The position numbers and the translations under genes were made by a program. A DNA stretch of 64,000 nt, from assembly GCA_903839725.1 (NCBI GenBank), contig CAIMDG010000002.1:305117-369116 (forward strand). Reading direction: 5' to 3'. Position 1 is the stretch's first letter. Each line of letters begins with the position of its first letter. Below the pieces are notes generated by a model. The model saw only the letters and a program-made list of their open reading frames with translations, had not been told where the DNA came from and made no database searches. Source of the stretch: an uncultured bacterium (GTDB lineage: Bacteria > Patescibacteriota > Minisyncoccia > Phycocordibacterales > PALSA-1337). Shown one piece after another: positions 15,441 to 63,166 of this stretch.

Positions 15441-16335
15441 TATTCAGATTACACAATCAAGTGAAGGCTATGAACTCATCGACTCTGGTGATGGTGAAAA
15501 ACTCGAGCGTTTTGGTGCAGTTGTACTTTCTCGACCAGATCCTCAGGCTTTATGGAAAAAAATGTTGCCTGAGAGTGAATGGAAAAAAGCACATGGTCAT
15601 TTTGGGAGAAGTGGTACACCTCTTCCAGGGAATGAAGAGCGGGGGAGTTGGACACTGAAGACCGATGTTCCAGCAAAATGGGAGATACCTTTTGGTGGGT
15701 TGAAACTATGGATCAAACCAACTGCATTCAAGCATACGGGTCTTTTTCCTGAGCAATCCAAGAATTGGGAGTGGATGGAGGGTAAAATTAAATCTCAAAA
15801 ATTACATCTTAAAAATGATGACATCGAAGTCCTCAACCTTTTTGGCTATACCGGTGGAGCATCACTCGCATGTGCGCAAGCTGGTGCGAAGGTTGTTCAT
15901 ATAGACAGTTCGAAAGCTGCCGTAAATTGGGCACGTGAAAATGCCGAGGCTTCAGGACTCAAGGATTTACCAATTCGTTGGATTATAGAAGATGCACGAT
16001 TGTTTGTTGAACGTGAAATAAAGCGAGGAAGGAAATATGATGCCATTCTCATGGATCCCCCAGCATTTGGTCATGGTCCAACTGCAGAATTGTGGAAAAT
16101 TGAAAATAACTTTTTGGAACTTATTGAAAATTGTATGAAATTGCTCAAAGATGCACCAGTATTCTTTTTGATCAATGGATATTCTGCCGGATATTCAGCA
16201 ATTGCGTATGAAAATAATTTACTTGAATTGAAAGAGAAGTATGGAGGTAGTATTGAAATAGGGGAGTTGGCTATCGAAGAAACCAAGAATAAGCGTTTGT
16301 TACCATCTGGTATTTTTGCAAGGTGGTCAGCTTAA
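15406..16335 (+). CDS. class I SAM-dependent (rRNA) methyltransferase, RlmI/RlmK-like
   Basis: LNLFGYTGGASLACAQAGAKVVHIDSS (motif I) and ILMDPPAFG (motif IV). Confidence 0.6.
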   Translation: MIVQHHSMKTSNIQITQSSEGYELIDSGDGEKLERFGAVVLSRPDPQALWKKMLPESEWKKAHGHFGRSGTPLPGNEERGSWTLKTDVPAKWEIPFGGLKLWIKPTAFKHTGLFPEQSKNWEWMEGKIKSQKLHLKNDDIEVLNLFGYTGGASLACAQAGAKVVHIDSSKAAVNWARENAEASGLKDLPIRWIIEDARLFVEREIKRGRKYDAILMDPPAFGHGPTAELWKIENNFLELIENCMKLLKDAPVFFLINGYSAGYSAIAYENNLLELKEKYGGSIEIGELAIEETKNKRLLPSGIFARWSA

Positions 16336-20488: not shown

Positions 20489-20584
20489 CGATGCAAATAC
20501 GCAAATGTATGCGAATGACACGAATACATCGCACAGCTTCTTGGATTTATTCGCGTCATTCGTGTTCATTCGTAATTTGCATCG
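20489..20584. repeat. iteron-built palindromic element, copy A (between nusG and rplK)
   Basis: Arms GATGCAAATACGCAAATGTATGCGAATGACaCGAATA / TATTCGCGTCATTCGtgtTCATTcGtAATTTGCATCG around a variable centre. Each arm is made of tandem NNGCRAAT octamers. Copies also at 54351-54457 and 61309-61415. Confidence 0.7.
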
Positions 20585-20626: not shown

Positions 20627-21049
20627 ATGGCAAAAAAGATTGTAAAACAAGTAAAAGTTATCGCCCCTGCCGGAAAGGCAACCCCAGCTCCACCACTCGG
20701 TCCTACACTCGGTCAGGCCGGTGTTAACATTGGTGATTTCACCAAGAAGTTCAATGAAGCTACAAAGAACATGATGGGAGACATGATCCCTGTTCTTATT
20801 ACCGTCTATGAAGATCGTTCATATGATTTCGTACTCAAGACTCCTCCAACATCAAGTTTGATATTGAAGGCACTTAAGCTCGAAAAGGGTTCAGGTAAGC
20901 CAAATACTAACAAGGTTGGTACTCTCAACAAGGCTCAGCTCAAAGATATCGCAGAGAAGAAGATGCCTGACTTGAATGCTAACGATGTTGAAGCTGCAAT
21001 GAAAGTTGTTGCTGGTACAGCACGTCAGATGGGAGTAGATGTGAAGTAA
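20627..21049 (+). CDS. rplK: 50S ribosomal protein L11
   Basis: [47 protein letters not shown]. Confidence 0.92.
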
Positions 21050-21082
21050 TCTTAAATTTCAAATTTTAAATCTCAAAAATAA
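21050..21082 (+). repeat. A-rich AAATyTCAAA repeat, intergenic copy
   Basis: TCTTAAATTTCAAATTTTAAATCTCAAAAAT directly after the rplK stop. Same family as the four in-frame copies in ileS. Confidence 0.55.
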
Positions 21083-21106
21083 CACCGGAGACGGTGTTAT
21101 TTTTAT
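21083..21106 (+). terminator. rho-independent terminator after rplK
   Basis: AACACCGgagaCGGTGTT followed by ATTTTTAT. Confidence 0.65.
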
Positions 21107-21362: not shown

Positions 21363-21380
21363 GTTTTATATTGTAACAGA

Positions 21381-21497
21381 GTAAGCACATACTACACAGA
21401 CTTTTAGGGACGCGGATATTTTTTTGCTGAAAAATTCCTAGTGCTCGCCTCAGTCAGGCTCGCAGTGTCCCTAAAAGTCTGTGTAGTATGTGCTTAC
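21381..21497. repeat. perfect 31-bp inverted repeat with 55-nt spacer
   Basis: GTAAGCACATACTACACAGACTTTTAGGGAC at 21381-21411 and its exact reverse complement at 21467-21497. Sits at the 3' end of the DHFR-like gene. Confidence 0.8.
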
Positions 21498-22006
21498 TTA
21501 ATAACCTTATATTCAACAAGCAATGTTCCACTCTCTGTTTTTTCTAGATTCACGAGTTCTAACTTATAGTCCAAAGTCTCTTTGAATAATCGGATACCAT
21601 TACCGAAGAGGGTAGGTTCGATAGTGAGGTACAAACTATCTACGAGTCCTGATTTCATGAACATAGTATAGATCTGAGAACCACCACAAATGGCTACTTC
21701 TTTAAAACCGCGAGTTTCTAATTCCTGGATAAGTTCAGTAGGTTCCTTGGTTGTCGTCTCAACACTTTCTGGCATATCTGGGAGTCTTTCAGGGGAGTAT
21801 ATGATATTGAGTCGATCCTTGAGTGCTCTACCACCGAATGTTTTCCACGTATTCTGGCCAGTAACTATAACTCCTGCACGTTTGGTCAGTTCCACGAAGC
21901 GCTTCTTGTCTTCTTTGCTCGTCCAGACCGTCGAAGGTGCCGAAGAATCTCTGGCGATGAAGCCGTCTACTGATAATGCTGCGATAATGAAGATTTTTAT
22001 ATTCAT
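21494..22006 (-). CDS. dihydrofolate reductase-family protein (RibD C-terminal domain type)
   Basis: MNIKIFIIAALSVDGFIA...GVIVTGQNTW...YLTIEP. ORF-track frame extends to 22081. Likely start is Met at 22006. Confidence 0.6.
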   Translation of the reverse strand: MNIKIFIIAALSVDGFIARDSSAPSTVWTSKEDKKRFVELTKRAGVIVTGQNTWKTFGGRALKDRLNIIYSPERLPDMPESVETTTKEPTELIQELETRGFKEVAICGGSQIYTMFMKSGLVDSLYLTIEPTLFGNGIRLFKETLDYKLELVNLEKTESGTLLVEYKVIK

Positions 22007-31031: not shown

Positions 31032-34000
31032 ATGTCAGTAGAAATTCCAGACAAAAAACCAAAATCACCTAATGCGGAGCGTGAAGAACGTATTCTTTTG
31101 AGTTGGAAAGAAAAAGATATTTTCAATAAAACTCTAACTAAACCTGCACCCAAAGGGGAATTCGTTTTTTTTGAAGGTCCTCCAACTGCCAATGGTCGCC
31201 CCGGAATCCATCACCTCGAAGCGCGTGCATTCAAGGATGCAATACCTCGTTACAAAACGATGCAAGGTTTTTATGTGCGTCGCAAAGGAGGTTGGGATAC
31301 TCACGGTTTGCCCGTTGAACTCCAAGTAGAAAAAGAGCTTGGTCTCAAATCAAAAAAGGAAATCGAGAATTACGGTATCGCCGCATTCAATGATAAGTGT
31401 AAAGAAAGTGTTTGGAAATATGTCCATGAATGGGAAGACTTCACCAATCGCATGGGATACTGGGTTGATCTCAAGAATCCATACATCACCTATAAGTCTC
31501 AATATATTGAAGCAGTATGGAATGTCATCAAGACTGCAGATGATAAGAAGTTACTCTATAAAGACTACAAAGTAGTACCATGGTGTCCGCGTTGTGGAAC
31601 AGGATTATCTTCACATGAATTGGCACAAGGGTATGAAGAAGTAAAGGATTTGACGTTGTACGTTAAATTCAAAATTAAATCTCAAATTTCAAATCTCAAA
31701 AATGAAGCACAGGGAGATACATATTTTTTGGCATGGACAACAACACCGTGGACGCTTCCGGGAAATGTGGCATTGGCAGTAGGGAAGGATATTGAATATG
31801 TGAAGGTTAAAACAGGTGAATTACTTTCACCAGAAGCTTCTTCACCTAAAGGTGGTAAAGGTGTCGATATGGAAGCGGCATTTATTCGCGGTAATAATAA
31901 GGATGATATTTATTTAATTCTTGCAAAAGAGCGTTTGAGTGTACTCAAAGATGTTCAGCATGAAATTGTTGAAACAATAAAGGGCTCTGACCTTGTCGGA
32001 CTTTCCTATGAGCCACTATTCTCATTCTTGAAAGACAGCGTGACAGGGGAGCAGAAAGATAAACTTTCACATGCATTCAAAGTATATGCGGGTGATTTCG
32101 TCACCACAACCGACGGTACAGGTATTGTGCACATCGCCCCAATGTATGGACAAGACGATTTTGAGCTCGGTACAAAAAATAATTTGCCAAAATATCATCT
32201 CGTAAATGATGACGGCACGTTCAAAAAAGAATGTGGCTTTTTGGCTGGTAGATTCGTCAAAGAGAAAGATGCTAATGGTAAACCAACCTTGGATGTTGAT
32301 GTGGTTAATTATCTCAAAGAAAAAGGATTATTCTTTGCTCAAGAAAATTATAAGCATACATATCCTCATTGCTGGCGCTGTCATACACCACTTATCTATT
32401 TTGCACGTGATTCATGGTATATCCGCATGTCATCACTTCGAGATGAGCTCGTTAAACAAAATGAAGGTATTCATTGGGAACCTGAACATATCAAAGAAGG
32501 ACGTTTCGGTGAATGGCTCCGCGAAATCAAGGATTGGGCAATTTCACGTGAGCGTTATTGGGGAACACCATTGCCAATCTGGTCATGTGAAAAATGTCAT
32601 GCACGAAAAGTTGTTGGTTCAGTCGATGATCTCAAACGTCCTGCAAAGAATACGTATTATGTGATGAGACATGGTGAGTCGACAGGTAATATTGAAAGGG
32701 TTTTGAATAGTAGTATAACCGCGCAAGTTTCTCTTACTGATACTGGTAAAGAGCAAGTAAAAAAGTCCGCGCAAGCTTTGAGAAAGATATCATTTGACTA
32801 CATAATCGCTTCTCCTCTTGTGCGCACCCAAGAAACAGCACATATTGTAAAAAATGAACTCGGTCTTACTGATAGTCAGATGATTACGGATGAACGTCTA
32901 GTCGAACTCGGTCTTGGTCCATGGAATGGAAAACCTGTAGATGATTTTCTTGATGCGTATCCAGTCGCTAGTCGCTTTGAGAAGACTATTGAAGGTGTAG
33001 AATCGTATGTTGATCTCAAAAAACGCGTTGGCGGTTTTCTCTATGAGTGTGAGAAAAAATATGAGGGCAAAACTATTCTTATCGTTACTCATGGTTCTCC
33101 TGCTACATTACTTGTGGCTGTGACACAGGGAATGAATCATGAACAAACTATTTCCTACGAAGAAGAACATTTCCTCGGTAATGCTGAAGTTCGTCCTCTT
33201 CAATATACCGTTTTTCCACATAATACTGAGTATGAACTCGATCTCCACCGACCATTCATCGATGAGGTAACCTTTGCATGTTCGTGTGGAGGAGTAATGA
33301 AGCGTGCAAAAGAAGTTATGGACGTCTGGTTTGATTCTGGAGCTATGCCATTTGCGCAAGATCACGAGATGAAATCTCAAATCTCAAAAATCAAATCTCA
33401 AAACTTCTTTTCAAAATTATTCGGTAAGGAATCAAAGATGTTATATCCTGCCGATTTTATTTCAGAGGCAATTGACCAGACTCGTGGATGGTTCTATACA
33501 CTTCATGCTATTGGTGCAATCATGGGGAAGGGTAAGGCGTACAGGAATGTTATTTGTCTCGGACATATTCTCGATGCTGAGGGTAAGAAGATGTCCAAGT
33601 CTGTAGGTAATGTGGTGAATCCATGGGACATGATGGATCTTTACGGTGCTGATGCATTACGTTTTTGGATGTATTCGGTCAATCAGCCAGGTGACTCAAA
33701 GAATTTTGATCAAAAAACAGTTGATGAGGTGGTGAAGAAAGTATTTAACTTGGCTTCAAATGTTCTTTCGTTCTATAAGATGTACGAAGATACATCTCAA
33801 AAATCAAATCTCAAAAATCAAATCAAATCGCAAAACGTACTGGATCAATGGATCATCACACGATTGGATGAAGTTATTGAGACGGTCACAAAAGGACTTG
33901 ATGGGTATGTATTCTTGGAACCTACACGTACTATCCGTGATTTTATCGCTGATCTATCACAATGGTATCTTCGCCGTTCACGCGATAGATTCAAGGGTGA

Positions 34001-34619
34001 TGATGAAGCTGATAAACAAGCAGCACTAGAAACAACAAAGTATGTATTGATAACTTTGGCAAAAGTTATGGCACCATTCACACCGTTCTTTGCTGAATTT
34101 ATGTATACAGAAACTGGTGGTGAAAAGGAAAGTGTTCACCTCGAGGAGTGGCCAGAAGCAGGGAAGGTTGATGCGAAACTTATTGCCGACATGAATATTG
34201 TTCGAAGTCTTTCTTCGAAGGGTCTTGAGGCAAGAATGAAGGCAAAAATAAATGTGAGACAGCCACTCGCAAATCTTAAATCTCAAATTTCAAATCTCAA
34301 AGATTTAGCACCGGAACTTATTGATCTCATAAAGGATGAAGTAAATGTAAAAAATATCGTATTTGAAGGAGCACTTACAACTGAAGTCGAGTTGGATACA
34401 ACTATCACTCCAGAGCTCAAAGAAGAAGGTGATGTTCGTGAACTCATCCGTTCTATTCAAGATTTGAGAAAAGAAAAAGGTCTGTCTGTAGGAGATAAAG
34501 TATCTATTACTGTCCCAGAATCAAATCGTGCCTTGGTTGAAAAATATGGCCATGAAATCAAGAAGACAACAGGTCTCATCGATATCAAGGTCGGTGATAG
34601 CTTGAGTATCATCGCGTAA
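31032..34619 (+). CDS. ileS: isoleucine--tRNA ligase carrying an inserted histidine-phosphatase domain and four short in-frame repeat insertions
   Basis: Canonical IleRS blocks: PPTANGRPGIHH (HIGH), AWTTTPWTLPGN, WGTPLPIWSCEKCH, DLHRPFIDEV..CSCGG, DVWFDSG, QTRGWFYTL, KMSKSVGN. 1195 aa is about 150-250 aa longer than typical. Confidence 0.92.
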   Translation: MSVEIPDKKPKSPNAEREERILLSWKEKDIFNKTLTKPAPKGEFVFFEGPPTANGRPGIHHLEARAFKDAIPRYKTMQGFYVRRKGGWDTHGLPVELQVEKELGLKSKKEIENYGIAAFNDKCKESVWKYVHEWEDFTNRMGYWVDLKNPYITYKSQYIEAVWNVIKTADDKKLLYKDYKVVPWCPRCGTGLSSHELAQGYEEVKDLTLYVKFKIKSQISNLKNEAQGDTYFLAWTTTPWTLPGNVALAVGKDIEYVKVKTGELLSPEASSPKGGKGVDMEAAFIRGNNKDDIYLILAKERLSVLKDVQHEIVETIKGSDLVGLSYEPLFSFLKDSVTGEQKDKLSHAFKVYAGDFVTTTDGTGIVHIAPMYGQDDFELGTKNNLPKYHLVNDDGTFKKECGFLAGRFVKEKDANGKPTLDVDVVNYLKEKGLFFAQENYKHTYPHCWRCHTPLIYFARDSWYIRMSSLRDELVKQNEGIHWEPEHIKEGRFGEWLREIKDWAISRERYWGTPLPIWSCEKCHARKVVGSVDDLKRPAKNTYYVMRHGESTGNIERVLNSSITAQVSLTDTGKEQVKKSAQALRKISFDYIIASPLVRTQETAHIVKNELGLTDSQMITDERLVELGLGPWNGKPVDDFLDAYPVASRFEKTIEGVESYVDLKKRVGGFLYECEKKYEGKTILIVTHGSPATLLVAVTQGMNHEQTISYEEEHFLGNAEVRPLQYTVFPHNTEYELDLHRPFIDEVTFACSCGGVMKRAKEVMDVWFDSGAMPFAQDHEMKSQISKIKSQNFFSKLFGKESKMLYPADFISEAIDQTRGWFYTLHAIGAIMGKGKAYRNVICLGHILDAEGKKMSKSVGNVVNPWDMMDLYGADALRFWMYSVNQPGDSKNFDQKTVDEVVKKVFNLASNVLSFYKMYEDTSQKSNLKNQIKSQNVLDQWIITRLDEVIETVTKGLDGYVFLEPTRTIRDFIADLSQWYLRRSRDRFKGDDEADKQAALETTKYVLITLAKVMAPFTPFFAEFMYTETGGEKESVHLEEWPEAGKVDAKLIADMNIVRSLSSKGLEARMKAKINVRQPLANLKSQISNLKDLAPELIDLIKDEVNVKNIVFEGALTTEVELDTTITPELKEEGDVRELIRSIQDLRKEKGLSVGDKVSITVPESNRALVEKYGHEIKKTTGLIDIKVGDSLSIIA
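31677..31703 (+). repeat. in-frame A-rich repeat copy 1 in ileS (encodes KSQISNLKN)
   Basis: AAATCTCAAATTTCAAATCTCAAAAAT. Confidence 0.6.
32655..33239 (+). other. histidine phosphatase (phosphoglycerate-mutase superfamily, branch 1) domain embedded in IleRS
   Basis: YYVMRHGESTGN (RHG catalytic His), SPLVRTQETA, DERLVELGLGPWNG, ILIVTHGSP (second His). Flanked by IleRS residues ...DDLKRPAKNT and EYELDLHRPF... Confidence 0.75.
33372..33404 (+). repeat. in-frame A-rich repeat copy 2 in ileS (KSQISKIKSQN)
   Basis: AAATCTCAAATCTCAAAAATCAAATCTCAAAAC. Confidence 0.6.
33793..33836 (+). repeat. in-frame A-rich repeat copy 3 in ileS (SQKSNLKNQIKSQN)
   Basis: CATCTCAAAAATCAAATCTCAAAAATCAAATCAAATCGCAAAAC. 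Confidence 0.6.
34271..34302 (+). repeat. in-frame A-rich repeat copy 4 in ileS (NLKSQISNLKD)
   Basis: AAATCTTAAATCTCAAATTTCAAATCTCAAAG. Confidence 0.6.
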
Positions 34620-35243: not shown

Positions 35244-35255
35244 TTCTTGAAGCGA

Positions 35256-35369
35256 CTCATACACCCTGTGGTGCAAGAGACTCCGTGACGAGCAAATATA
35301 AGTGCCTGAAGAATTATATAATGAAACGATATCCCGCTGGGAAGTCTCTTGCACCACAGGGTGTATGAG
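35256..35369. repeat. perfect 27-bp inverted repeat with 60-nt spacer carrying a conserved 43-nt core
   Basis: CTCATACACCCTGTGGTGCAAGAGACT (35256-35282) and its exact reverse complement (35343-35369). Spacer core GTGCCTGAAGAATTATATAATGAAACGATATCCCGCTGGGAAG recurs at 53330-53371 with about 90% identity. Confidence 0.75.
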
Positions 35370-35409
35370 CCGCTTTCAAGGTTGACTGTTTCGTAGTAAA
35401 ATATAAGGG

Positions 35410-46960: not shown

Positions 46961-47045
46961 TAAATTACAAATTAAAAATAACAAATCCAAAAATCAAGCA
47001 TCATAATATCAAAGATATGCAATTGTTTATTTTTGAGATTTGATA
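46961..47045. repeat. A-rich repeat family, forward copy then reverse-complement copy (rpsF-ssb intergenic)
   Basis: TAAATTACAAATTAAAAATAACAAATCCAAAAATCAAGC ... TTTTTGAGATTTGATATTTGAGTTTTGAATTTT. Confidence 0.45.
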
Positions 47046-47070
47046 TTTGAGTTTTGAATTTTATTACACT

Positions 47071-47745: not shown

Positions 47746-47804
47746 TTTTGAACGTGTCATTCCCGCGCAGGCGGGAATCCAGAATCACCAACAGTAGATT
47801 CAAC

Positions 47805-47845
47805 ATTAGAAAAAACATAACCACCTAACTTAGGTGGTTATGTTT
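47805..47845. terminator. bidirectional rho-independent terminator
   Basis: AAAAAACATAACCACCTAAcTTAGGTGGTTATGTTTTTT between convergent rpsR and efp. Confidence 0.7.
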
Positions 47846-47908
47846 TTTCTATCTAGTTTTTACTTAATGAGACTCTGGATTCCGGCCTTCGCCGGAATGA
47901 CACACTGT

Positions 47909-50805: not shown

Positions 50806-50927
50806 GAATCATCGAAGGAGATGTGTACTCATTTTTTGCACAAGTTTGTAAACACTGCGGTACGCAATGTAATGTAAGTGTCTCTAAACTTGTATAGAAA
50901 ATGAGTACACATCTCCTTCGATGATTC
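50806..50927. repeat. perfect 30-bp inverted repeat with about 62-nt spacer
   Basis: GAATCATCGAAGGAGATGTGTACTCATTTT (50806-50835) and its exact reverse complement (50898-50927), at the 3' end of ftsK. Confidence 0.8.
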
Positions 50928-53228: not shown

Positions 53229-53329
53229 TTATATATTATACAGCAAAGAGTGATTATAAATAAGAGCAATGTTTGAATCCGCCTCAGCAACACAGTCCTC
53301 ACCGAAACATCCGTTACGTTCTCGTATGA

Positions 53330-53371
53330 GTGCCTAAAGAATTAGATAATGAGACGATATCCCGCTGGGAG
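53330..53371. repeat. second copy of the conserved 43-nt core (GTGCCTAAAGAATTAGATAATGAGACGATATCCCGCTGGGAG)
   Basis: About 90% identical to 35302-35344. Lies in the divergent ftsK / 53552 promoter region. Confidence 0.6.
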
Positions 53372-53551: not shown

Positions 53552-54331
53552 ATGGACAATAAAGACATACAAAATCCAAACTCATTCAATGATCCATTAA
53601 ACTGGAAATCACTAGGTTTTTTTAATGTCGAAGAGTATTTGATGTATGTGTTCAAAAAGACAGAGAAGATAACTTCTGCTCTCTATCTCGTCTCAGGCCT
53701 CCTCAAAGACGAAGAACCCCTCAAGTGGGAAATTCGTGATAAAGGTATCGATTTATTGTCTTCGTCTTTTATGGCATCGAGTGCAGTCCCTGGTGACAAG
53801 AATTCAGTTATTCAATCTCTCTTCACCGCGGCACTTGAAACACTTTCACTTCTCAATGTTGCTCGCATTTCTCACCTTATTTCTGACATGAACCATAACA
53901 TCTTGGTTCGTGAGATTGATCAAGTTGTAGTACTACTTAGAGATCGTCTCTCTGCCAATGCTGAGAGTGCGGGATATGTCCTTTCAGAAGGATTCTTTAA
54001 GACGCCAGATTTGTTCAGTAGTGGTTTCAAAAATCCTCAAGCAATCTCAAAGACAAATGTAGGAGATACGCATGGTCAGTCTGCTTCGTACAAGTCCGGT
54101 CACGCAAAGGTTTCTCAAGGACATGTTGATGTGCAAGTCAAAAAGACAAGTAGACAAGAAGCGATCGTGACAATCCTCAAAGGACAGTCGAATCTGACAA
54201 TCAAAGACTTCTCAAAAGTCATCAAAGACTGCAGTGAAAAGACCATTCAGCGTGAGTTGCTCGAATTGGTAGATAAGGGGGTTATCAAGAAGGAGGGGGA
54301 GAGGAGATGGAGTAGGTACTCTTTGAAGTAA
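53552..54331 (+). CDS. hypothetical protein with C-terminal winged-helix DNA-binding-like domain
   Basis: C-terminus TIKDFSKVIKDCSEKTIQRELLELVDKGVIKKEGERRWSRYSL is HTH-like. Confidence 0.4.
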   Translation: MDNKDIQNPNSFNDPLNWKSLGFFNVEEYLMYVFKKTEKITSALYLVSGLLKDEEPLKWEIRDKGIDLLSSSFMASSAVPGDKNSVIQSLFTAALETLSLLNVARISHLISDMNHNILVREIDQVVVLLRDRLSANAESAGYVLSEGFFKTPDLFSSGFKNPQAISKTNVGDTHGQSASYKSGHAKVSQGHVDVQVKKTSRQEAIVTILKGQSNLTIKDFSKVIKDCSEKTIQRELLELVDKGVIKKEGERRWSRYSLK

Positions 54332-54350: not shown

Positions 54351-54457
54351 CGATGCAAATCTGCAAATGATCGCGAATGACGCGAATGCGTCGCATCCTA
54401 CTCTAGATTCAAGTGAGTTTATTCGCGTCATTCGCATCCATTTGCGTATTTGCATCG
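54351..54457. repeat. iteron-built palindromic element, copy B
   Basis: CGATGCAAATCTGCAAATGATCGCGAATGACGCGAATG ... TTATTCGCGTCATTCGCATCCATTTGCGTATTTGCATCG. Confidence 0.7.
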
Positions 54458-54973
54458 CATATTTTGGGACTTCAATAAAAATAGGGTTTTTTCTTGACTT
54501 TTGACCCTAAATGGCTTAATATAGTCCTATTATCAATAGTAACTAAATAGAGCCATAATTTGCCTAAATCTCAGCATATTTGTGTTATCCACATGTCCTT
54601 TTGCCAGAGTGTGTAATTTCGCGTTATAATGCTTTGTATCGAGTGCGATTCTTGCCTACCCAGGTTCGAACTGCATTCGTCCCAGAGCAATAGTGCTTCG
54701 GGGAGTACGAACTTTGACAAATCAATAAAACGTCAAGTTCGATCGTTCATTATTGAATGATTGATTTCAGACATATTCGAAATATCTTTATTGATATGGA
54801 GATAGTTTGTTTTCAGTTTATCAATAATTTGTTTTGCCACAATATCTTGTATGTGCGTGTCGATACAACGTGCGTTCAAGGTGTGGAATTATTATTAGTA
54901 TTACAAAATTGCATTCATTCTCTATCTTTATTAGTAAACAGAGGACATGCATTAAATTACAAAAAAAATTCGT

Positions 54974-61072: not shown

Positions 61073-61308
61073 ATGTTGTTAAATTACAAATTTCAAATAT
61101 CAATTTTCAAACCAGCATTTAGATGTGGTTTGTTTGAACATTGGAATTTGGTTTTTGATATTTCTAGTTGCCTTGGGCAACTGGTTCGACCTTTTATAGG
61201 CCTAATAGAGATGAATACCTCGGAAGGTCTTGTATCCTTATATAAGGATTGCCTTCTGTCTTAGAGCCTTGGGAACAATATTACATGAATTTTGATTAAA
61301 CGCAAATT

Positions 61309-61415
61309 GATGCAAATACGCGAATGTATGCGAATGACGCGAATAGAACGCACAGGAATCGAAAGTCGGATGCGACGTATTCGCGTCATTCGCATACATT
61401 TGCGTATTTACATCG
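61309..61415. repeat. iteron-built palindromic element, copy C (upstream of rplJ, divergent region)
   Basis: GATGCAAATACGCGAATGTATGCGAATGACGCGAATAG ... GTATTCGCGTCATTCGCATACATTTGCGTATTTACATCG. Confidence 0.7.
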
Positions 61416-61458: not shown

Positions 61459-62085
61459 ATGGACACTCTTACCGCATTATTTGGCAGCGAAACAAAAGTA
61501 AAATTGCTGCGATTATTTTTATTCAATCAAGGAACACCATTTCTCGTAAAAGAATTGGTAGAGAGAACGAAGTGCACATCAGGGTCGCTCAAGAAGGAAC
61601 TTTCTATGCTTGTAAAAGCTGATATCGTTCGTAAGAAAAATGTTTTAAAAGATATAGAGGTTATCAAGAACAAGAAAACAGTATTCAAGAAGCTCAAGGG
61701 GCCGGGTTTTATCTTGAACGACAAATTCCCGTATCTTGATTCGATCAAGAATCTTTTAACTGTTGCAAGTCTGAACGCCGATGATTCTTTGGCAAAGCGC
61801 TTCACCAATGCTGGTCGCGTGAAGTTATTCTTGGCAGCTGGTGTATTTATTCAGAACTGGGATTCACGCGTCGATCTTCTTATTGTCGGCGAAGAACTCA
61901 ATCTTCCTAAAATCGAATCAGTCATCAAGACTATCGAATCTGAAATTGGGAAGGAGATCGCGTATTCTGCATTTGAGACACAAGACTTCGAATATCGTCT
62001 TGGCATACATGATAGGTTGGTGCGGGATATTCTTGATTATCCGCATATAACATTGATCGATAGATTGGGAGTTGAACCACAATAA
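61459..62085 (+). CDS. hypothetical protein (ORF-track N-terminus 61324-61458 runs through the palindromic element and is probably not translated)
   Basis: Start taken as MDTLTALFGSETKVKLLRLF... Confidence 0.4.
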   Translation: MDTLTALFGSETKVKLLRLFLFNQGTPFLVKELVERTKCTSGSLKKELSMLVKADIVRKKNVLKDIEVIKNKKTVFKKLKGPGFILNDKFPYLDSIKNLLTVASLNADDSLAKRFTNAGRVKLFLAAGVFIQNWDSRVDLLIVGEELNLPKIESVIKTIESEIGKEIAYSAFETQDFEYRLGIHDRLVRDILDYPHITLIDRLGVEPQ

Positions 62086-62908: not shown

Positions 62909-62983
62909 TAGTCTCGTCTTTCGTATGTAAACAAAAAACAACTCTATAATACGAGTTGTTTTTTGTTGGTACGCTAATGTTAA

Positions 62984-63121
62984 AATTCCAAATAACAAGC
63001 ACCAAATGACAAATAAATTACAAACTACAAATTTCAACTTCTAAACCTTGTTAAATGGGTTTGGAAATTATGATTTTTGTATTGGTTATTATTTGTCATT
63101 TGGTGCTTGTTATTTGGAATT
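62984..63121. repeat. perfect 33-bp inverted repeat with 72-nt spacer
   Basis: AATTCCAAATAACAAGCACCAAATGACAAATAA (62984-63016) and its exact reverse complement (63089-63121). Confidence 0.8.
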
Positions 63122-63166
63122 TCTTGTCCACAGACTATCCACATGTAAGATAATAATAGAAAGGTA

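Follow-up and report, generated by a model that had tools for sequence, protein, structure and literature searches.

The question raised by this locus is why one palindromic element of about 100 bp, built of short repeated units, should recur in the spacer ahead of rplK, in the spacer ahead of rplJ and upstream of a surface-protein gene in an uncultured member of the Patescibacteriota. The window analyzed here is the whole stretch of 64,000 nucleotides in which these copies lie. The original prediction, made from the letters of the window, had considered a binding array for a dimeric regulator of highly expressed genes, a MITE-like element, and a long transcribed hairpin acting as an attenuator. 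A search of the window for repeats recovered the three copies, 96-107 bp long, as direct and inverted repeat families, and both the palindromes and the placements given for them were confirmed, including the distance of about 500 bp between copy B and the surface-protein gene (Table 1).

Each arm consists of four (G/A)C(G/A)AAT units standing in inverted symmetry to those of the opposite arm, as had been described; however, they are not strict octamers, since the unit starts are spaced 8, 10, and 9 nt. The inner unit pair, CGAATGACRCGAAT, is the most conserved portion of the arm. The window contains four occurrences of GCRAATNNNGCRAAT, with 0.07 expected, and none of 100 shuffles reached four. 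The arm sequences first proposed hold as a consensus, but not for the right arm of copy A, which is degenerate (64% to the reference copy) and includes ACGAAT units. The centre of copy C contains a short inner palindrome, and this copy lies upstream of both of its neighbours, 44 nt from the ATG at 61459 and 237 nt from the rplJ start. A Pfam scan confirmed the identities of nusG, rplK, and rplJ and gave a weak DeoR HTH match for the ORF 53552-54331 that adjoins copy B; the ORF 61459-62085 beside copy C is wHTH-like, and the 130-aa ORF just 3' of rplJ, which fell outside the Pfam scan, is putatively rplL from its position and sequence. Moreover, because the arms are open in several frames, it is plausible that the ORFs reading through the element are artefacts, as had been suggested.

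Table 1. Positions of the palindromic copies and of the second family of short-unit arrays in the window.
Feature	Positions	Strand	Parts	Setting
Copy A	20489-20584	.	left arm 20489-20526, centre 20527-20547, degenerate right arm 20548-20584	between nusG stop (20483) and rplK start (20627); begins 5 nt past the stop codon
Copy B	54351-54457	.	left arm 54351-54387, centre 54388-54419, right arm 54420-54457	begins 19 nt past the stop of wHTH ORF 53552-54331; surface-protein ATG 517 nt downstream
Copy C	61309-61415 (61300..61415 with extra unit)	.	left arm 61309-61345, centre 61346-61377, right arm 61378-61415	divergent spacer, rplJ (start 61072, minus strand) vs ORF 61459-62085
Copy C, extra unit	61300-61307		ACGCAAAT	
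(T/C)AAAT array	15784-15826			
(T/C)AAAT array	21048-21090			
(T/C)AAAT array	31671-31713			
(T/C)AAAT array	33371-33415			
(T/C)AAAT array	33786-33828			
(T/C)AAAT array	34263-34314			
(T/C)AAAT array	46961-47062		palindromic	rpsF/ssb spacer
(T/C)AAAT array	61079-61117			
(T/C)AAAT array	62983-63122		palindromic, 65-nt arms	just before 23S rRNA

The palindrome copies are lineage-specific insertions, the same sites being empty or otherwise filled in close relatives. Contigs with an identical NusG carry copy A, copy B is identical across five same-strain contigs, and no polymorphism was seen among the same-strain contigs obtained from several samples; thus, any mobility of the element must be slow. 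The original prediction, by its own terms, would be refuted if sister genomes lacked the element in their rplK and rplJ leaders, and the comparison with relatives does refute it in this way. From its NusG homologues, the organism falls within Candidatus Taylorbacteria, a lineage of Paceibacterota in the candidate phyla radiation (CPR). Four sister Taylorbacteria lineages (among L122-L128), with NusG proteins 87-96% identical, lack copy A in a nusG-rplK spacer of 18, 48, 9, and 90 nt (NusG 96%, 92%, 90%, and 87% identical, respectively), and a 20-kb stretch of one sister genome, L126, holds no arrays. Copy B is missing downstream of the homologue of the 53552 ORF in two relatives whose neighbouring proteins are 98% (L176) and 91% (L177) identical; in both, the site is occupied by an unrelated filler of about 150 nt, and the next 480 nt or so are almost identical. 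The copy C site of L157, a near-identical relative, is occupied by an element of four units that keeps the register but is only about 55% identical, beside an adjacent stretch of about 110 nt that is 100% identical to the window, which suggests either replacement or a very fast coordinated change. L157 has an additional copy between rplJ and rplL, where the spacer of the window is 19 nt, and comparison of the filled with the empty site leaves room for a duplication of 1-2 nt at most. Direct repeats in the flanks of 122 elements, taken as a sign of target-site duplication, did not rise above a displaced-flank control.

In addition, contrary to the original prediction, the palindrome does not stand in place of the rplJ leader, because the 100% identical block of about 110 nt, at about 61187-61296 (minus strand), lies as a separate unit between copy C and rplJ, while its surroundings diverge in L157. 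This block is a candidate rplJ leader RNA; it gave no Rfam match at E <= 1 and has modest fold support (z = -2.4). Elsewhere in the window, a stretch of about 480 nt that precedes the PG_binding surface-protein gene (54490-54973), with promoter-like sites at 54494-54522 and 54601-54630, is near-identical in L176, highly conserved in L177, and more conserved than the adjoining hypervariable 150 nt or so; it could represent either a small RNA or a long structured leader.

The element is not restricted to this genome. A scan of one genome per GTDB species with the core pattern CGAATGACRCGAAT-N10-40-ATTCGYGTCATTCG found the palindromic core in more than 118 contigs, several bins giving multiple loci, and its distribution over about a dozen bacterial phyla is wide but patchy. 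Among the matches listed are Acidobacteriota, Chloroflexota, Planctomycetota, Verrucomicrobiota, Bacteroidota (including Flavobacterium and Prevotella isolates), Gemmatimonadota, Desulfobacterota, Spirochaetota, and several CPR lineages, together with three archaeal bins assigned by their labels to Methanosarcinales. Isolates with the element include Singulisphaera GP187, Botrimarina Pla108, Flavobacterium agri, and Prevotella BV3P1. The listed matches share a common plan, in which tandem CACGAAT or GCGAAT units are followed by a short centre and by the mirrored units, and their outermost stem is variable yet still complementary. According to crude gene calls at the 118 listed loci, the spacers are tandem in 52 cases, convergent in 36, and divergent in 10, and the elements usually stand 10-100 nt from a stop codon, a bias that fits either tolerance at 3' ends or a role at the RNA level. 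All-against-all clustering of the ORFs around the same 118 loci revealed no recurrent neighbour family except for a small PDDEXK_3 cluster, and the largest cluster comprised six loci.

These observations bear on the proposal that the eight half-sites form an operator array, bound by a dimeric or multimeric host regulator, such as the wHTH proteins encoded beside copies B and C, and shared by ribosomal-protein and surface-protein genes. The symmetric, iteron-like layout with its 8-10-nt spacing and the two wHTH-like ORFs that adjoin copies B and C speak for such a function. However, the element is absent or replaced at the orthologous sites of sister genomes that keep the genes, no neighbouring gene family recurs to any extent around the 118 listed loci (six loci in the largest cluster), and the same arms flank nuclease genes in unrelated operons (gatC/gatA, rpe/tkt), as described below. 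The neighbouring wHTH proteins were rejected as regulators, given that the copies are absent in relatives retaining those genes. We therefore regard an operator as highly improbable; it requires, as does an attenuator, a conservation at the regulated genes that is absent in relatives.

The possibility of an RNA function was approached through folding. When folded as single strands, the three copies are predicted to form very stable hairpins (-44 to -65 kcal/mol, z = -6.5 to -10.5), with equal fold energy for both strands and no G-U asymmetry. The attenuator reading was not sustained: a terminator scan found no U-tract or terminator-like site at copies A, B, or C, none of the three combines a GC-rich hairpin with a following U-tract as intrinsic terminators and attenuators do, and the positions are not conserved in relatives. 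Promoter and terminator scans at the copies gave nothing beyond the shuffle expectation. In the broad palindrome family, T-runs tend to precede and A-runs to follow the palindrome. A search of Rfam, at gathering thresholds for the window and 18 loci and at E <= 10 for copy C, returned only generic miRNA-like hairpins, and the models of the L10 and L1 autoregulatory leaders did not match the element.

A host-serving, REP-like RNA hairpin, kept for the stabilization or processing of mRNA 3' ends or for the insulation of transcription units, with a merely historical link to the nuclease, would account for the stability of the fold, for the start of copies A and B within a few nucleotides of stop codons, and for the excess of tandem and convergent over divergent spacers, a positional bias that REPs equally show (PMC3733652). 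Nevertheless, copy C lies in a divergent spacer, no terminator-like site accompanies the copies, both strands fold alike, the copies are not kept at the orthologous sites of close relatives, and a short unit conserved across phyla is not needed for a generic hairpin; such a role seems unlikely.

The sole recurrent partner of the palindromes is a gene for a protein of about 125 aa that belongs to Pfam PF13366 (PDDEXK_3) and NCBIfam TIGR04256, the "GxxExxY protein". The gene lies within 8 kb of only 4-5 of the 118 listed loci and is lacking from the 64-kb window. However, in all 11 cassettes examined (L043, L116, L148, L160, L161, L164, L167, L129, L147, L063, and L101), it stands between inverted arrays of short units, which are of the CGAAT type in 10 of them. 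Each cassette arm is a tandem array of 2-5 units, which read (G/A)C(G/A/T)AAT in CPR bacteria and CACGAAT or GCGAAT in the other CGAAT-type cassettes. In L043 and L116, the PF13366 gene (E about 1e-40) sits exactly between inverted four-unit CGAAT arrays, and a gene-less palindrome with the same arms is found about 50 nt from the full cassette. The inverted-repeat score of the flanks ranged from 23 to 49 in 10 of the 11 cassettes and was 16 in L063, whose GCGAAT arrays were confirmed by eye; the mean over all sampled ORFs in the loci, GxxExxY genes included, was 12.8, and the top scores belonged almost exclusively to GxxExxY genes.

The link to the window itself comes from CPR relatives. The outer-arm pattern of the window, searched against metagenomes, was found at 31 CPR loci; some of these are full palindromes and others solo arms, and three of the contigs carry GxxExxY genes. 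In one of the cassettes of CPR bacteria, L148, the gene lies inside a perfect inverted repeat of 51/51 nt, AATGCGATGCAAATCCGCGAATGCATGCGAATGATGCGAATGGAATCGCAG, and each of the three window copies can be aligned with these arms from end to end of the arm, inner ATCGCA/TGCGAT motif included. For copy A, the similarity also covers the centre, ATCGCACAG...CTTGGATTT, which matches part of the 5' untranslated sequence of the L148 cassette. Four further CPR homologues, chosen from the results of a protein search, are flanked by ACTAAT/ACGAAT/GCAAAT arrays: one, in a Taylorbacteria bin (L160), is inserted between gatC and gatA with ACTAAT/ACGAAT arms, and the others occupy the rpe-tkt spacer, the gap separating tsaD from an epimerase gene, and a site ahead of ftsW. 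The CPR GxxExxY homologues are mostly found on short contigs, which we take as a signature of mobile DNA.

The arms often overlap the ends of ORFs, which gives rise to the N-terminal "NTN" and C-terminal "IRIIRI" tails of the GxxExxY family. Many GxxExxY domains form part of larger predicted proteins, 250-900 aa long, and in one locus (L156, 10161-10186) the frame of a DNA-polymerase-I-like ORF, identified by eye from its translation, runs through a solo GCRAAT arm (NNNANTRMYANDANM). It may be that coding sequence tolerates cassettes or arms, or that these lead to the fusion of gene calls. The arrays can also differ in their unit. In an Acidobacteria locus (L101, 2920-3440), the GxxExxY gene is flanked by inverted arrays of GCGGAG units, and the same genome also carries GCGAAT palindromes (L001, L034, L045), which hints at several specificity subfamilies within one genome. 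In a Verrucomicrobiales locus (L063, 100-1500), at least four GCGAAT palindromes, arranged head to tail and separated by conserved spacers of about 100 nt, follow the gene. Viral contigs were not matched by the DNA pattern and contained no confirmed GxxExxY relative, so that, as far as can be judged from these searches, the element is not obviously phage-borne.

The encoded protein is probably an active nuclease, since 53 CPR homologues and the distant seed sequences all share D77, E87, and K89 as well as the G-E-Y motif, and since a confident AlphaFold model (pLDDT 89) places it near PD-(D/E)XK folds. The nearest solved folds are Cas4, MGME1, the tRNA-splicing endonuclease (EndA), and the Holliday-junction resolvase Hjc, all of them of the PD-(D/E)XK type, at a weak level of similarity (best E 2e-3, TM about 0.4-0.5); no sequence match was found in the PDB. 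PADLOC and PHROGs gave only weak Cas4-like matches and matches of unknown function, and no transposase family matched the gene between the matching ends. A CPR-centred profile retrieved 5,558 clusters at 50% identity (E <= 1e-3). To our knowledge, no PD-(D/E)XK protein of such size acts alone as a transposase. In the one literature entry found, PDDEXK_3 is recorded as a family of unknown function, with mixed bacterial and archaeal clades that point to horizontal transfer (PMC3424549).

Very likely, then, the window copies are gene-less derivatives of this cassette and not regulators, because their arms share the architecture and a near-identical sequence with the arms that flank GxxExxY genes in related CPR contigs. 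With moderate confidence, we go further and consider the three palindromes to be non-autonomous, MITE- or REP-like copies of a selfish GxxExxY cassette that have been spread or retained through binding of their units by the nuclease. Alternatively, only full cassettes would insert, and the palindromes would be scars left after loss of the gene by recombination or slippage between the arms, without mobility in trans. In favour of this reading, copies A and C, like two other elements (L130, L149), keep pieces of the inner untranslated sequence of the cassette (ATCGCA.AG ... TGCGAT) in their centres, solo arms and half-elements are common (L134, L142, L146, L150, L156), and the window is devoid of the nuclease gene. 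However, empty copies far outnumber full ones, with 4-5 genes per 118 listed loci, near-identical empty copies adjoin the full one in L043 and L116, the L063 chain joins at least four elements, and it is more economical to assume that the short form was copied than that the gene was lost repeatedly and independently at each site; we thus find deletion scars a rather unlikely source of the copies.

Regarding the preferred reading, that of gene-less copies mobilized or maintained by the nuclease, the repeated units would be its binding sites, occupied cooperatively along each arm, probably by a multimeric enzyme. The nuclease would cut at or near the palindrome, possibly when this is extruded as a cruciform or hairpin, and the cleavage may drive the spread or the retention of full and empty copies, in parallel to the RAYT/REP systems. 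The window copies would be passengers without a dedicated regulatory role; when transcribed, they would form very stable hairpins from either strand and may have an incidental influence on how the nusG-rplK and neighbouring transcripts are processed or how stable they are. We infer transposition and do not describe it as observed, because target-site duplication did not exceed the control and no excision or insertion event was seen.

The closest parallel is offered by the REP/REPIN elements and their RAYT partners (REPtron), which are likewise dispersed, multi-copy, short intergenic palindromes with a tandem and convergent bias and an occasional location within genes, and in which a small nuclease gene lies between inverted copies of the repeat and is far outnumbered by gene-less doublets. 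However, the partner here is a PD-(D/E)XK protein (PF13366/TIGR04256) and not an IS200-like HUH/Y1 transposase, and the arms are arrays, 37-45 nt long, of a 5-7-nt unit at 8-10-nt spacing, whereas a REP is a single stem of 20-40 bp with a GTAG or CGTC tag (PMC3733652). No such tag stands beside a single 8-20-bp stem in the window elements. The CGTC-tagged REP families were also rejected as the identity of the element, since the published ones have 8-9-bp stems and 4-5-nt loops, in contrast to the multi-unit arms found here. The two systems differ in distribution as well, with REPs mainly in Proteobacteria and the present elements in CPR, Chloroflexota, Planctomycetota, Acidobacteriota, Bacteroidota, and Methanosarcinales.

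As for MITEs, the resemblance noted in the original prediction came close to the truth: the elements measure about 100 bp, have terminal inverted repeats and no coding capacity, are related to the ends of a longer gene-carrying element, and show insertion polymorphism between close relatives. Nevertheless, target-site duplication is absent, the parent carries a PD-(D/E)XK nuclease gene without DDE or any other recognized transposase, and the arms make up nearly the whole element. Membership in either class fails, because the enzyme is of the PD-(D/E)XK type and because the tag, the target-site duplication, and a recognized transposase are all missing.

Plasmid iterons, the heptads of the omega repressor, and the metboxes of MetJ are, like the present arms, direct and inverted arrays of short units, spaced by less than a helical turn, a layout that implies cooperative binding of many copies of a small protein. 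Judged from general knowledge of these arrays, the present elements differ in their dispersal and polymorphism, in having no fixed association with a regulated gene or replicon, and in having the nuclease as their sole recurrent partner. Small selfish or structure-specific nucleases are known among the free-standing and intron-borne PD-(D/E)XK homing endonucleases (such as I-Ssp6803I) and the minimal junction nucleases (Hjc, Cas4 core), but no intron or intein context is present here, and the flanking iteron palindrome is without counterpart among them. The TIGR arrays of TIGR-Tas were considered and rejected: their units are processed to 36-nt guide RNAs with two variable spacers of 8-12 nt and box C/D motifs and are accompanied by a Nop-domain Tas gene (PMC12045711), whereas the units here are constant, with a period of 8-10 nt, and no Nop-domain match was found among the subset of neighbouring ORFs scanned.

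In the searchable literature, neither the arm motifs nor GxxExxY, PDDEXK_3, PF13366, or TIGR04256 led to a description of the element, and the palindrome/GxxExxY cassette looks like an apparently undescribed mobile element. More tentatively, and with somewhat less than even confidence, GxxExxY nucleases could be the mobility enzymes of an undescribed class of mobile elements in bacteria and archaea, consisting of a cassette of about 0.5 kb with palindromic arrays of the recognition unit and of abundant gene-less palindromes, which would land in operons and in frame in genes, without target-site duplication and perhaps through cruciform cleavage. If true, this would assign a function to a family comprising several thousand 50%-identity clusters, and the REP/RAYT paradigm would be extended to a second nuclease superfamily. 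The orphan family PF13366/TIGR04256, with a nuclease between iterated-unit arms and many gene-less copies, would acquire a concrete, testable function, that of driving a selfish element. CPR genomes are very small and usually thought to be poor in mobile DNA; such elements would account for their hypervariable spacers and for breaks in their assemblies. For annotation, the elements are a source of false ORFs and of proteins extended at the N terminus, and they can pass for operators or leaders of ribosomal-protein genes, as in the present case.

The window also contains a second iteron family, made of (T/C)AAAT octamer units (TTAAATCTCAAATTTCAAATCTCAAAAAT), two copies of which are palindromic (Table 1). 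One copy abuts the rplK stop and another lies directly upstream of the rplJ start. Four copies are in frame inside the IleRS ORF 31032-34619, where they are translated as KSQISNLKN-like peptides; the first of these, the only one covered by the L126 sequence, is absent there. This IleRS has a His_Phos_1 domain inserted in its catalytic domain (aa 543-706), and the L126 homologue shows the same combination of Pfam domains. Other long intergenic inverted repeats, with arms of 33-61 nt that are 72-97% complementary and unrelated in sequence to the palindromes, are found at 21367-21511, 35250-35375, 47754-47903, and 50806-50927, and the loop of 35250-35375 shares a direct repeat of 61 nt (84%) with 53310-53370.
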